Below are positions 46,778 through 51,916 of a stretch of 64,000 bases of DNA, one piece after another. The DNA is from a phage. The translations under genes were made by a program, and so were the position numbers. Positions within the stretch are counted from its first letter, which is position 1. Each line of letters opens with the position of its first letter. Under the pieces are notes generated by a model. It made no database searches and was not told the origin of the DNA. It worked only from the letters and a program-made list of their open reading frames with translations. The DNA lies in the sequence record PZ452578.1; one strand, 5' to 3'.

Positions 46778-47461
46778 TTATCGTTTTGTTGGAAGAGATA
46801 GAGGATCGCATTCTTCCTCTGATGGAGCGTCTTCTAGACCCATAGCATAGCGCAAAGCATACTTCATCATCAGGATGTCTTTTGCACAGTCATGAATGGA
46901 ATCATGCGCAACAAATCCATCTAAAGTTCCCTTTGGAAGTGGGCAAGTGGTCATATCACGAACAAGGAGAAGTGCTTCAATTCTAGTACGAATATCACGC
47001 TGATTCCAGAATTTACATGGTTCTAACTTAAACGTATCAAGCTCATTCTCAGAAACACCATTAAGGCGTTGAATATCACGAATGAGATCGACTAAAATTG
47101 GAAAATCAAACGACATTCCACGGCACCAGCCTTGAGATTTCCAAGGATCGATATTATGTGCATTGATGTAATCATTAAATTTTGCAATACCGTCAATAGT
47201 GCTTACATCTTCATCTGATGGTGCAATATTTTTTCTAGCTTCAGGTGATTGATTTTTCCACCATTCAATAGTGCTTTTAGTAAAAAGACGATGTCCTTTT
47301 TGGCTTTTTAAATCAAATTTGATTTTAATGCCACGTGAAACTAATTCATCAAATGTTTCAACAACTTCTGGGTTAGGGTCAAAGGCAATAACAGCCAAAT
47401 CAATAACCGCTGCTTTTTCACCGCTTCCCATTGTTTCAAAATCTATAATAAAATCAAACAT
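46778..47461 (-). CDS. dexA: exonuclease A (227 aa)
   Basis: 227 aa; DEDD-like N-terminus FDFIIDFETMG; position. Confidence 0.8.
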   Translation of the reverse strand: MFDFIIDFETMGSGEKAAVIDLAVIAFDPNPEVVETFDELVSRGIKIKFDLKSQKGHRLFTKSTIEWWKNQSPEARKNIAPSDEDVSTIDGIAKFNDYINAHNIDPWKSQGWCRGMSFDFPILVDLIRDIQRLNGVSENELDTFKLEPCKFWNQRDIRTRIEALLLVRDMTTCPLPKGTLDGFVAHDSIHDCAKDILMMKYALRYAMGLEDAPSEEECDPLSLPTKR

Positions 47462-47718
47462 TAAATTTTCCTTGCTAAATCGCGAATTTGACCTACAGTA
47501 TAGTCTTGAATATAAACTTTATTAATAGGTTCATCAATAAATTTTGCCATAGATTCAATATCTTTTTGCATCTCTTCAAGACTGTATACTATCTTTAAAG
47601 CTTTTTCGCGAATAGTAATATTTTCAGGACCCTGATTTTCTTCAATGACAGCTTTAACATTTGTCATAAGAGATTTAAATTGGTACCAACTTAATTCAAT
47701 CATTAATAATCGCCTCAT
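47461..47718 (-). CDS. hypothetical protein (85 aa)
   Basis: Track ORF, first of three tandem approx 85-aa ORFs. Confidence 0.45.
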   Translation of the reverse strand: MRRLLMIELSWYQFKSLMTNVKAVIEENQGPENITIREKALKIVYSLEEMQKDIESMAKFIDEPINKVYIQDYTVGQIRDLARKI

Positions 47719-47956
47719 AAAGATAGCTAATTTCGCCTAAAACATAATCATTAATTGTAACAGTTTTCACTTCACCGCAAAAGAATTCTAACGCAATTAA
47801 ATCTCGTTCAATTTCTTCTAATTGAAGCATCAACTTACTAGATTCAATTTTTACAGTTTCACGATTTTTACCATGAGCAATTTCATAAATTTCGCTAACT
47901 TTATCCTGAAGAAGATAAAACTGATCTTTAGTTATTTCCACGAATAGCTTCCTCAA
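47696..47956 (-). CDS. hypothetical protein (86 aa)
   Basis: Track ORF, similar pattern to 47461-47718. Confidence 0.45.
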   Translation of the reverse strand: MRKLFVEITKDQFYLLQDKVSEIYEIAHGKNRETVKIESSKLMLQLEEIERDLIALEFFCGEVKTVTINDYVLGEISYLYEAIIND

Positions 47957-48188
47957 ATTTAATTAGTAATTTACAGACACTTTCATCTAGTGTAATTACC
48001 GTATCTGTATTACTGTGATATGATTGTTTTTCAATTCGTTTAATTGCTAATATAGTATCACTTATAAGATAAAGCTTATGAAGGAGCTCAGCTCCTGTTA
48101 CCATAACATTAAGATTATCTTGCTTATTAGTATGCTTCCTTATACCATCTATTAGACGATTTAAATATTTTGAATTGATGTTAATCAT
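47928..48188 (-). CDS. hypothetical protein (86 aa)
   Basis: Track ORF. Confidence 0.4.
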   Translation of the reverse strand: MININSKYLNRLIDGIRKHTNKQDNLNVMVTGAELLHKLYLISDTILAIKRIEKQSYHSNTDTVITLDESVCKLLIKFEEAIRGNN

Positions 48189-48194
48189 ATAGCC

Positions 48195-49514
48195 TCACAC
48201 ATAAAACACATCATAACGACCACGGGTAACACCAACATAAAGAAGTTGTTGGGCCAATTCAGCATCTGCATAATGAATACAAGGCGTATAAATGAAAGCA
48301 CGGTCTACAGACATACCCTGAGCTTTATGGAATGTTGATGCAGGAAGTGCTTTCACTTTACTAAACTGTGATTTAGCATCCCAAAAATCACTCCATGGAG
48401 CTTTTCCGCCTTTGTTCCAATTTTTATAAGTTTCTGCCGTTTTACCTAAAAATAGGTTAAACTTATATAGCTCTTCATCAGATGAAATTATTTTAATCTT
48501 TTCACGATAATATTCATCATCGCCATAAGTTTCTACTGTTAAATCCCAATGACGAATTAGATATTCTCCAGGAACACCACGAGCTTTAACAAACGTTGAT
48601 GTATACTCTGCTTCTATAATACGAACTAATTGTCCGTTATTAAAAATAATTTCTGACACAGGCTTTCCATCAATTTTATATGTTTTAATTAATGGTTCCT
48701 GCATTACAATAATTTCACCGACAATAAAATCTTTATCAGTTTCAAAAATCTTTTTACGAATAATGCTATTTAACTTGTCAACAGATTTATTCGTAAATGC
48801 CATTACGCGATTTTCAAACAAATCATCTAGAGATTTGACGATTGAAAAATAATTTACCATAAAATCGCGTAAAGCGGTATCACCAGTAAATCCACGTACT
48901 CCATGCCCGTCAACAACTTTATCATAAATCCACTTACCGTTACGAACGTCAGTAGCTACATCAATAATAGGAGCATTACTACGTTTAACTTCAGTGAGTT
49001 CACACTGATAAAAATCTTTATGTGTAAAGAATGGACTGATATAAGCAGTGTTTTCTCCTGGGTCAACAGGTCTAATTTGCTTATTATCACCTATTCCAAT
49101 TATAGTACACCACGGCGGGATAGTTGAAAGCAGAATTTTAAATAGCTTTCTATCATACATTGACACTTCGTCGCAGATTAATACCCTACATTTAGCTAAA
49201 TCTGGTACTTCCTTCTGCTCAAAGAGGACATTTTCTTCATATGTTACTGGGTTAATTTTAAGAATACTATGAATAGTACTCGCTTCTTTCCCCGACAGTT
49301 TTGAAAGAATCTTTTTAGCTGCATGTGTAGGAGCTGCTAAAATAATACCAGTTTCACCCGTAGATATTAAAGCTTCAATGATGAATTTAGTAAGAGTAGT
49401 CTTACCGGTACCAGCAGGTCCATTAATAGTTACATGATGTTTCTTTTCTTTAATAGCCTTCATAACAATGTTAAAGGCATTTTTCTGGCCTTCGGTCAAA
49501 TCATCAAATGTCAT
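48195..49514 (-). CDS. dda: DNA helicase Dda (439 aa)
   Basis: 439 aa; Walker A GPAGTGKT; SF1B helicase. Confidence 0.9.
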   Translation of the reverse strand: MTFDDLTEGQKNAFNIVMKAIKEKKHHVTINGPAGTGKTTLTKFIIEALISTGETGIILAAPTHAAKKILSKLSGKEASTIHSILKINPVTYEENVLFEQKEVPDLAKCRVLICDEVSMYDRKLFKILLSTIPPWCTIIGIGDNKQIRPVDPGENTAYISPFFTHKDFYQCELTEVKRSNAPIIDVATDVRNGKWIYDKVVDGHGVRGFTGDTALRDFMVNYFSIVKSLDDLFENRVMAFTNKSVDKLNSIIRKKIFETDKDFIVGEIIVMQEPLIKTYKIDGKPVSEIIFNNGQLVRIIEAEYTSTFVKARGVPGEYLIRHWDLTVETYGDDEYYREKIKIISSDEELYKFNLFLGKTAETYKNWNKGGKAPWSDFWDAKSQFSKVKALPASTFHKAQGMSVDRAFIYTPCIHYADAELAQQLLYVGVTRGRYDVFYV

Positions 49515-49822
49515 CGTAAATTCCCTGCAATTGGTATACTAACAATACGCCCAGTATCTAAAATTCGCTGATATAATCTTTGTGTGTCTACGTCAGGCTT
49601 AACATGTTTAACTTCTATTTTATTAAACCAAAATTTACGTGGAGTCTCAACTAATCTTGGAATTCCCTTACCTAAAGCTAGTCGATACTGCTCTTTAAGA
49701 GTAGTAAATACTTTATCAGCAATATTCCATTCAAAAAATACAGCAGGACGATGTTCATCAAGTGGAACTGGCGCTGTAAATCCGTCTTTGTCTCGGTAAA
49801 CTATCGCATATACATAAACCAT
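49511..49822 (-). CDS. hypothetical protein (103 aa)
   Basis: Track ORF. Confidence 0.45.
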   Translation of the reverse strand: MVYVYAIVYRDKDGFTAPVPLDEHRPAVFFEWNIADKVFTTLKEQYRLALGKGIPRLVETPRKFWFNKIEVKHVKPDVDTQRLYQRILDTGRIVSIPIAGNLR

Positions 49823-49823
49823 A

Positions 49824-50570
49824 TTATCCTCGGATAAGTTTAAAAATTGAACAATTCAGCGGATATCCTCTTTTCAGTTTAAGTTTATCAATAAAAGACA
49901 AGTTTTGATACCGCTCTACACCTTGAATAATTTTATCACACATATCATATTGCATTTCTGCTTCTGACAACTTTTTCACAGTTTTCCAATCCGAGCCTTT
50001 AAGAAGAACGTTCAATTTAACAACTTCAGCGCCTTCTGCTATACGAGAACCATCAATACGAGCTTTAAGTGCTATAATTCTTAGCTTAATGTCAGAGGTC
50101 TGTTTTGATTTAGAAAGCTGAGAAATGTGTTCAATTCGGTTTTCACGTTTTTTCTGTATAGCTTTAATTTGATTATAAGTCTTTTTGATTTTAGCCCATT
50201 TCTTTTCATCTAAATTTAGTTTATGAACTTTTTTCGCAGATGAACGACCAATTCGCAAAGCAAACAAATCACGTTTTTCAATTAACTCCTCTAAAGTATA
50301 ATCAGAACGAAATGTATTATACTTTTTCTTTACTGCAATAACATTCCCTTTAATGTATCCAACGTTATTATCAAAACGTTCTAATGATAATTTCTCTCCT
50401 TCAATACGATTATCAAAAGGTTCTCCCGAGTAAGCACAAACTTTCTGATCTAAAATGTTCTTAATGTAATTGAAGTCTAAGTTAAAATCTTTAGAACGTC
50501 TTTTTGCAGATGCCTGAGTATGCTCTAAACGACGTTTAATTTTACGAATTTGGTTATTAGACAGCTTCAT
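49824..50570 (-). CDS. srd: Srd-like protein (248 aa), assigned by position
   Basis: Size and location between dda and modA; contains CAYSG...LERFDNNVGYIKGN motif; early promoter 50607-50636. Confidence 0.45.
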   Translation of the reverse strand: MKLSNNQIRKIKRRLEHTQASAKRRSKDFNLDFNYIKNILDQKVCAYSGEPFDNRIEGEKLSLERFDNNVGYIKGNVIAVKKKYNTFRSDYTLEELIEKRDLFALRIGRSSAKKVHKLNLDEKKWAKIKKTYNQIKAIQKKRENRIEHISQLSKSKQTSDIKLRIIALKARIDGSRIAEGAEVVKLNVLLKGSDWKTVKKLSEAEMQYDMCDKIIQGVERYQNLSFIDKLKLKRGYPLNCSIFKLIRG

Positions 50571-50606: not shown

Positions 50607-50636
50607 ACTATAACATTTTTACTTTAACTTGTAAAC
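50607..50636 (-). promoter_or_regulatory. T4-type early promoter upstream of srd-like ORF
   Basis: GTTTACA, 17-nt spacer, TATAGT. Confidence 0.5.
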
Positions 50637-50693: not shown

Positions 50694-51296
50694 TTATAGA
50701 TTAAATCCTTCAAAATCAAGAGTATAGATAGTGTATGTTGAATACTTTTTGTACTCATATCTATCTGCAATTCTAAATACACTTCCAGCTGGTATCATTA
50801 CTTCTTGTTCATCTGAAACTAATTCCATATTACGATAACGATGGCTATCCGGAAACTTAAAGTTTGGATTGTATTCTTTACAGCGTAGAGCTTTTATAGC
50901 ATACTCCTGGAAATTGAATACCATAGGAGCTTTGAATTCAAAAATAACTTGTGTGTTATACTCTAAACCGGAAGCAAAATGTAGAGCTATATTTTTATCA
51001 TATGAAGCTGATACTACTTTATCAAATGTAATAATATCAATTCCTTGATTTAATATTTGTTTAGTCTCAACTGGAACACCTCTCCAAAGAGGTTTATCGT
51101 TTGGAACCAAACGAGATTTGATTATTTCATTTAACCAAGTATGGTCATCTGGTTTGTTGGTAATACAATGAATTAAAAGTTCAATTTCAGATAAATTAAA
51201 CCCTTCAGAAAGTAATTCTTCACGAATAGAAGCACGCACCGATGCATCCATTGATTTTATTTTAAAATCTTTTAGTTGCATTACTGAGTATTTCAT
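50694..51296 (-). CDS. modA: ADP-ribosyltransferase ModA (200 aa)
   Basis: 200 aa; R / S-x-S / E-x-E triad (WRG, SAS, EQEVMIP). Confidence 0.75.
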   Translation of the reverse strand: MKYSVMQLKDFKIKSMDASVRASIREELLSEGFNLSEIELLIHCITNKPDDHTWLNEIIKSRLVPNDKPLWRGVPVETKQILNQGIDIITFDKVVSASYDKNIALHFASGLEYNTQVIFEFKAPMVFNFQEYAIKALRCKEYNPNFKFPDSHRYRNMELVSDEQEVMIPAGSVFRIADRYEYKKYSTYTIYTLDFEGFNL

Positions 51297-51916
51297 TCAA
51301 CTACCTCAATATCATAAACTTTAAATGTTCCAAATGAATCGTGTAATTTTTCTTTTGAAATAGAAGTTATTTTATACTTTCCAATTGGAATCATCCATTC
51401 TTGTTCATGCACAATCATCATTAAGTTATCAGTACGCTCTGAATCTAATCCATCAGTATCTTCATACGTGTACTTAAACTCAGTATTAGGAGAAGAAAGT
51501 ATAATATCGCTGATATGGTCAGAGTAATTAAAAGCTTTATCAGTTTTTAAACGAAATATTGTTTCAGTGAAATATTCAGCATAAGAAAAAGAACACGCTG
51601 TATGCAAACTAGTAGTAAATGAATCTACCCTGTTCGTTGAAAACACTTCTCCAACCTGTAAATCTTTAATAAGTTCTTTTGTCGATTTTGATATACCACG
51701 ATATAACTGATATGGCGATTTAGTTAAATGCTTTTTAATGATTTCATTTAAATGCTTATGAAGAGCTTCATTCTTTTTAGCTTCCATACATTGCCAAAGA
51801 ACAGACTGTTCAAAGTCAGTAAATTTTTCACAGACCTTTTTATACATATCATATTGAAAATCAACGCTTTCAGCTTTTATAGATAACTGTTCAACATCTG
51901 CAGGATTAATAATCAT
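51293..51916 (-). CDS. modB: ADP-ribosyltransferase ModB (207 aa)
   Basis: 207 aa; YRG, STN, EQEWMIP motifs; tandem with modA. Confidence 0.75.
   Translation of the reverse strand: MIINPADVEQLSIKAESVDFQYDMYKKVCEKFTDFEQSVLWQCMEAKKNEALHKHLNEIIKKHLTKSPYQLYRGISKSTKELIKDLQVGEVFSTNRVDSFTTSLHTACSFSYAEYFTETIFRLKTDKAFNYSDHISDIILSSPNTEFKYTYEDTDGLDSERTDNLMMIVHEQEWMIPIGKYKITSISKEKLHDSFGTFKVYDIEVVE

Follow-up and report, generated by a model that had tools for sequence, protein, structure and literature searches.

T4-type Srd carries a predicted zinc-less HNH fold of the PacI kind, with a tyrosine and no catalytic histidine

The early host-takeover protein Srd of T4-type phages appears to carry, in its first 100 residues, an HNH-type nuclease fold of the unusual PacI kind, with an arginine in place of the catalytic histidine and with the zinc sites of PacI lost. 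The protein is encoded on the minus strand at 49824..50570 of a 64,000-nucleotide stretch of phage DNA (record PZ452578.1, hereafter the window), where an open reading frame of 248 amino acids plus a stop codon is present. Taking the evidence together, we assign a probability of roughly 80% to the reading that this is a T4-type Srd with a PacI-type N-terminal domain that engages nucleic acid; the identity of the protein, its fold and its homology come directly from the comparisons described below, while the mechanism is what we infer from them. The srd gene and its link to RNase E were already known, and some automated annotations name homologues ‘HNH endonuclease’, yet in the literature searched we found no paper tying Srd to an HNH or His-Me finger domain. 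What appears to be new is the PacI-type Arg/Tyr site, the zinc-less fold and a very large phage family without Pfam domains, together with the point that ‘no His’ does not equate to ‘dead’ for the Srd domain.

The original prediction assigned the frame to srd by its size and position, and the sequence confirms the assignment. The product shares 247 of 248 residues (99.6%) with T4 Srd (NP_049634), the single difference being T197 here versus I197 in T4, and the phrog_1400 ‘Srd anti-sigma factor’ profile covers aa 4-248 with an E-value of 2.9e-108. At the DNA level, srd is 95-100% identical across about 500 Tequatrovirus records, and in most of the complete Tequatrovirus genomes among those listed it lies at about 10-12 kb. 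The T4 gene order (dda, dda.1, srd, modA, modB) is kept in the window, with dda/dda.1 (48195-49822) flanking srd on one side and modA/modB (50694-51916) on the other. Names given to Srd homologues in GenBank vary, and include anti-sigma factor, anti-termination protein, HNH endonuclease, endonuclease, decoy of host sigma70 and hypothetical protein.

Genes around srd are tightly packed. A single base lies between the srd stop and the dda.1 ATG (TAAnATG; 49820-49826, minus strand), and 4-base overlaps (ATGA) are found between dda.1 and dda (49511-49514, minus strand) and between modB and modA (51293-51296, minus strand), a packing that suggests translational coupling along an early transcription unit. 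Upstream of srd, a consensus scan identified a promoter-like site at 50607..50635 (minus strand; TTTACA-17 nt-TATAGT, 10/12 matches) with a TG before the second hexamer, as in an extended -10 element. As a candidate srd promoter this site is only suggestive, because shuffled sequence is expected to yield at least as many such sites as the region contains. An antisense promoter-like site within srd (50275-50302, plus strand; TTTTCA-16 nt-TATAAT, 10/12 matches) is probably due to chance, since sites of this kind are no commoner in the region than in shuffles. Between dexA and dda (47461-48188, minus strand) there are three tandem open reading frames of about 85 aa each, the first two being paralogues (30% identity, E 6e-10), where the T4 annotation has two only, dexA.1 and dexA.2.

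The HNH-like motif that had been noticed in Srd lies in the peptide VCAYSGEPFDNRIEGEKLSLERFDNNVGYIKGNVIAV, which a translation check places at aa 44-80 (50331..50441, minus strand). A Pfam scan of Srd with E-values up to 10 returned neither HNH nor HNH_3, an NCBIfam scan gave nothing relevant, and a phmmer search of Srd against PDB sequences gave no matches. HNH matches were found in the PHROG profiles instead, with phrog_3322 ‘endonuclease’ at E 1.1e-18, phrog_3118 ‘HNH endonuclease’ at E 1.4e-16 and phrog_1035 ‘endonuclease VII’ at E 9.3e-8, the three together covering aa 4-158. Profile-profile comparison agrees, as hhalign matched a family alignment (A4) to the Gme-type HNH family with a probability of 61% (E 7.9e-5). 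Searches of PDB sequences with HMMER were less telling: a family profile (A3) found 4h9d as its sole match, weakly (E 0.49) and in the same register as the other alignments, and a PDB-wide hmmsearch with a tool-built family profile placed PacI at E 0.28 beside chance lipocalin matches. This last result is marginal, and HMMER alone would be insufficient to make the case for PacI or HNH.

Structure prediction gives a compatible picture. In a full-length AF2 model of Srd built on 17 orthologues, the pLDDT is 88.9 over the full length and about 90 over the N-domain region (83.1 for the N-domain modelled alone). The N-terminal domain (aa 1-100; 50271..50570, minus strand) is predicted to consist of helices at residues 5-24 and 33-40, a strand at 61-65, an omega-loop, a second strand at 77-81 and a helix at 82-88, and the beta-hairpin followed by a helix that forms the beta-beta-alpha-metal (His-Me finger/HNH) core is thus present in the model. 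When the full-length model was compared with the PDB by Foldseek, coiled-coil matches to the C-terminal helices dominated and PacI was the sole standout; because the search was swamped in this way, the N-domain was also modelled alone (aa 1-105). The best PDB match of this shorter model is Gme HNH (4h9d, E 1.2e-3, probability 1.0), followed by PacI (3ldy, probability 1.0, TMq 0.63), with McrA (6ghc) and the Cas9 HNH domain (9j1z) further down, at E-values that are modest throughout (1e-3 to 3e-2).

Comparison with PacI, for which we used a sequence verified against the PDB copy at 142/142 residues, allowed the resemblance to be weighed against chance. A family alignment of 55 diverse domains (A6) matched PacI in hhalign with a probability of 74% (E 2.8e-5, 80 columns), and an HMM of 183 family sequences scored PacI at 20.8 bits (E 0.0023 at PDB-size search space), against a maximum of 7.3 bits for the same HMM on 2000 shuffles of PacI. 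Three PHROG families, phrog_1035, phrog_3322 and phrog_3118, are common to PacI and Srd; for PacI the best match is phrog_1035 (2.5e-11), then phrog_3322 (1.5e-4), with phrog_3118 in fourth place (1.7e-3). Against Pfam HNH, even PacI gets no better than E 0.027, and this accounts for the failure of Pfam to see Srd. The motif [DE]R.D...GY...N.{8}N..[KR], with exact spacing, occurs once in the six-frame open reading frames of the window (in Srd) and once in PacI, and with the same spacing in 248 of the 291 family proteins fetched; a search of the window for a second copy of the Srd N-domain found none.

Since PHROG profiles, predicted fold and profile comparisons agree on one register, we take the HNH resemblance of Srd to be true homology, far beyond chance, as judged from alignments and models. 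That searches of Pfam, NCBIfam and PDB sequences came out negative or marginal is what one would cite for regarding the motif as an accident of composition in a phage protein rich in lysine, but the sequence, profile and fold evidence is independent and shares a register, and shuffled PacI sequences stay far below PacI itself; we regard this reading as already refuted, with a vanishing probability. The original prediction had proposed that high identity to T4 Srd over the whole length, with no HNH profile hit, would tell against the motif. What we find is the near-identity and no Pfam HNH domain on the one hand, and clear PHROG HNH, fold and hhalign matches on the other, a divided outcome for this check.

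The placement of the motif among HNH proteins has to be revised, as the original prediction had likened it to the HNH_3-type domains of phage Mob-family proteins. Neither HNH_3 nor HNH was found by Pfam in Srd or in 109 family members (scanned at E up to 0.01, coiled-coil noise only), and T4 MobE compared with the family profile by hhalign has a probability of 0.09%, that is, no similarity, MobE being the one Mob protein compared. The PHROG families matched by MobE and by Srd are disjoint sets. The pattern to which the motif had been likened, CxYCG...DRxD...GY...N, is the signature of PacI. A degenerate remnant of a Mob/HNH_3-type homing endonuclease would fit the superficial likeness of the motif and the presence of several Mob HNH genes in T4, yet besides these search results srd keeps the T4 gene order and its 10-12 kb position in most of the listed complete Tequatrovirus genomes, unlike sporadic homing genes, and we give such an origin scarcely any credence. 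Kinship between Srd and the T4 Mob/HNH_3 homing endonucleases would exist only at the broadest superfamily level (HNH), and Srd, unlike them, is syntenic and vertically conserved.

PacI (R.PacI, PDB 3ldy/3m7k; His-Me finger group 20 of Jablonska et al. 2017) has the same predicted fold as Srd, preceding helices included, and the two can be aligned residue by residue. In Srd, C45-A-Y47-S48-G49 (50424..50438, minus strand) corresponds to PacI C63-G-Y65-C66-G67, the counterpart of the canonical CxxCG, and the equivalent of the catalytic core, ERFDNNVGYIKGNVIAVKKKYNTFR (aa 64-88; 50307..50381, minus strand), is an ungapped match to PacI D92-K116. The PacI core reads C63-G-Y-C66-G ... D92-R93-S-D95-S-F-E-G99-Y100-S-P-Q-N104-A-R-L-A-C109-F-I-C112-N113-R-I-K116, and that of Srd C45-A-Y-S48-G ... 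E64-R65-F-D67-N-N-V-G71-Y72-I-K-G-N76-V-I-A-V-K81-K-K-Y84-N85-T-F-R88, with all motif residues coinciding between E64-R88 and D92-K116. Common to both are C-x-Y-x-G upstream, an Arg at the canonical His position, an omega-loop Tyr and the identical spacing [DE]-R-x-D-x3-G-Y-x3-N-x8-N-x2-[KR]. By alignment, E64 occupies the position of the metal-ligand Asp, R65 that of the canonical His, Y72 that of the omega-loop Tyr, N76 that of the structural Asn of H-N-H and N85 that of the helix metal-ligand Asn, while R88 is basic.

The observation that the motif is without a catalytic His proved correct. At the end of the first strand, where the canonical His would stand, R65 is found in every alignment and Arg in 299 of 301 family domains, and there is no His within the Srd motif, H17, H116 and H148 being the only His residues of the protein. 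This is not to be read as degeneration, however, as PacI also lacks the catalytic His and a Tyr takes its place (PMC4081073, PMC5714182), and Srd keeps Y72; because PacI, without the His, is proposed to use a Tyr, a missing His does not imply a dead domain. In PacI, a single metal is bound by one Asp and one Asn and the Tyr is placed as a general base (PMC4081073), the omega-loop Tyr having been proposed as base or nucleophile (PMC4081073; PMC5714182). We take Y100 to be this catalytic Tyr, as the omega-loop of PacI has no other, and Y72 aligns to it without a gap from E64/D92 onward. Judging from alignment and model, Y72, E64 and N85 may form a PacI-like site in Srd.

Srd and PacI also differ in several respects. 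The zinc ligands of PacI, C63/C66/C109/C112, correspond to C45/S48/K81/Y84, so that both Cys4 zinc sites are lost in Srd, and the N-terminal CxxC...CxxC zinc ribbon of PacI is absent from Srd. The first metal-ligand position is E in Srd and D in PacI, and the Srd N-domain, unlike PacI, is fused to a 135-aa helical region. The srd gene is conserved, early and linked in its role to RNase E, whereas PacI is a restriction enzyme, and while PacI cuts DNA as a metal-dependent homodimer, cutting by Srd would be an extrapolation from the alignment. Because the zinc sites and the N-terminal ribbon are missing, we treat the Srd domain as a putative zinc-less sister of the PacI group and not as a member. 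A tblastn search of PacI against phage genomes gave two weak matches only. A 199-aa protein of Vibrio phage 249E41-1 (P0080; L006:1492-2091), annotated ‘NUMOD1 domain-containing DNA-binding protein’, has a PacI-like N-terminal CxxC...CxxC ribbon and a core of SVDRLDDFKGY...N........N without the second zinc site, and may be an intermediate linking PacI to the zinc-less domain of the Srd type.

The Gme HNH nicking endonuclease (4h9d; Pfam HNH PF01844/HNH_5 PF14279), the best fold match of the Srd N-domain, belongs to a family whose members are also picked up by the Srd family HMM. Canonical domains of the Gme type have D-H-[S/T]-N-N, with Ser or Thr at the position of Y72, and four zinc Cys (at positions 48, 81 and 84 among others), whereas Srd has E-R, Tyr and one Cys.

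The domain is widespread in phages and its core is strongly conserved. An exhaustive profile search gave 7,093 cluster representatives (E <= 0.001), a relevant Pfam domain was found in 0 of the 109 family members scanned, and the 120 matches listed by a second family search all have ‘hypothetical protein’ as their source name. The mean column identity of family domains is roughly 30%, and the pentad [DE]64-R65-Y72-N76-N85 is intact in 298 of 301 non-canonical domains. Y72 is present in all 301 of these. Over the aligned domains, N76 is found in 307/307 and N85 in 306/307, in line with N68 and N77/78 of Gme and N104 and N113 of PacI; position 64 is D in 164/307 and E in 142/307, and C45 is present in 306/307. 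At the former zinc positions, every one of the 300 non-canonical domains with a residue at 48 has S or T there, position 81 is mostly T or K and position 84 mostly hydrophobic. The alignment of Srd orthologues has 32 invariant columns, of which 29 lie within aa 1-96 and 3 in the C-terminal region.

Family architectures include Srd-like proteins, stand-alone domains of about 120 aa, N-terminally extended forms and tandem repeats, and one stand-alone member was found in a 197-kb phage-like contig. An 852-aa metagenomic protein (P0079) contains four tandem copies of the Srd-N/PacI-type domain with E-R-Y-N-N intact in each, and also matches PHROG Lar-like zinc-ribbon and restriction-endonuclease families. 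A fold search of viral models gave 100 matches at E <= 0.001, and of the 50 listed, those with a name come for the most part from phages, together with one giant-virus ‘Zn-finger protein’. Srd is the only family member for which we found experimental data.

The C-terminal region of Srd (aa 113-248; 49827..50234, minus strand) is less conserved than the N-domain and is predicted by AF2 to form long basic helices at 122-153, 159-191 and 193-222, followed by a conserved tail; in the full-length model, long helices run from residue 93 to 233. Its pI is 10.0, that of the N-domain 9.8. For this part of the protein, the full-length fold search returned coiled-coil proteins only, and the modelled helices may mediate oligomerisation or partner binding.

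Just after the core, a 30-aa segment (aa 89-118; 50217-50306, minus strand) matches residues 569-598 of sigma70 (region 4.2) in BLASTP with 43% identity and a pairwise E of 0.008. No other similarity to E. coli sigma-70 is detectable, and this segment presumably gave rise to the name ‘similarity with rpoD’. This historical name and the short match are what speak for Srd as a sigma-70 decoy or anti-sigma factor, as the databases have it. At the profile level the candidate was rejected: no Pfam sigma-70 domain was found in Srd at E up to 10, the Srd family compared with RpoD by hhalign has a probability of 0.3%, and neither PDB search has a sigma or anti-sigma protein among its top 50 fold matches listed. 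As later experimental work points to RNase E, a sigma-directed role seems very unlikely.

T4 Srd binds the N-terminal catalytic half of RNase E and speeds host mRNA decay (Qi et al. 2015, as cited in PMC4980113, PMC7430671 and PMC13232886), and srd expressed alone impairs the growth of E. coli (PMC6070864). Because the two proteins are 99.6% identical, we assume by analogy that the RNase E role carries over to the Srd studied here. The abstract of Qi et al. is said to report that the effect of Srd on the tested RNAs is gone without RNase E, with RppH needed in one case, a dependence from which it can be argued that Srd by itself would not be the mRNA-cutting enzyme. A functional analogue is RapZ of E. 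coli, an adaptor that docks on the N-terminal catalytic half of RNase E and promotes cleavage, a comparison drawn in PMC7430671; the RapZ fold is unrelated to that of Srd, and RapZ has one sRNA as its target whereas Srd acts broadly on host mRNAs.

By alignment and model, Srd is a protein of two parts, a compact basic PacI-type domain (aa 1-100) and a set of long basic helices (aa 113-248). Within the first, Arg65 takes the place of the catalytic His and the invariant Tyr72 lies in line with the tyrosine proposed to replace the His in PacI, with E64 and N85 at the metal-ligand positions and with Ser, Lys and Tyr replacing the Cys4 zinc braces. In the mechanism that we propose, contact with nucleic acid would be made by this domain, the likeliest partner being RNA on or close to RNase E, and the helical C-terminal part may serve in oligomerisation and/or contact with RNase E.

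Whether the N-domain would also cut is a matter of balance. We put retained cleavage of phosphodiester bonds, as opposed to binding only, somewhat short of an even chance, because the whole PacI catalytic set is kept under strong constraint; the loss of both zinc sites and the reported dependence on RNase E and RppH weigh against catalysis, and a binding-only role seems slightly more likely than retained cutting. More tentatively still, and with more doubt than belief, Srd could be a metal-dependent, tyrosine-assisted nuclease that nicks or cleaves host nucleic acid, adding to host shut-off and toxicity, in which case active phage nucleases would form a very large clade marked by the [DE]-R-Y-N-N domain. 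Close to an even bet, in our judgement, is a descendant of a PacI-type HNH nuclease that no longer cuts and serves as a scaffold binding RNase E or nucleic acid, in the manner of the Smad MH1 and ENPP nuclease-like domains, which like Srd are His-Me fingers without the catalytic His and were recruited for binding. Stimulation of RNase E is the only published activity of Srd, its structural zinc sites are lost, and there are documented cases of His-Me fingers that are inactive yet still bind (PMC5714182), all of which would be expected of a non-cutting scaffold. The documented inactive groups, however, are without both the His and the substituting Tyr (PMC5714182), Smad MH1 and ENPP domains included, whereas Srd keeps the Tyr; in Srd and 298 of 301 relatives the Tyr, the Arg and the two metal-ligand positions are all retained, which is unexpected if catalysis had been abandoned, and in many relatives the domain makes up the entire protein of about 120 aa.

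The preferred reading, a T4-type Srd with a PacI-type N-domain that engages nucleic acid, concerns a protein belonging to the small number from phages that are known to reprogram RNase E, and one that databases still list as an anti-sigma factor because of a likeness over 30 residues. Having the full Arg/Tyr/Asp/Asn set in the best-conserved half of Srd makes the question of binder or cutter a concrete one, and the finding argues for re-annotating more than a thousand phage genes. It would tie a phage family without Pfam domains to a rare HNH variant with His-free chemistry, represented so far mainly by PacI and giant-virus proteins. Should the domains prove to be active nucleases, they would make up a clade of 7,093 cluster representatives whose members are now mostly labelled ‘hypothetical’ or ‘anti-sigma factor’.
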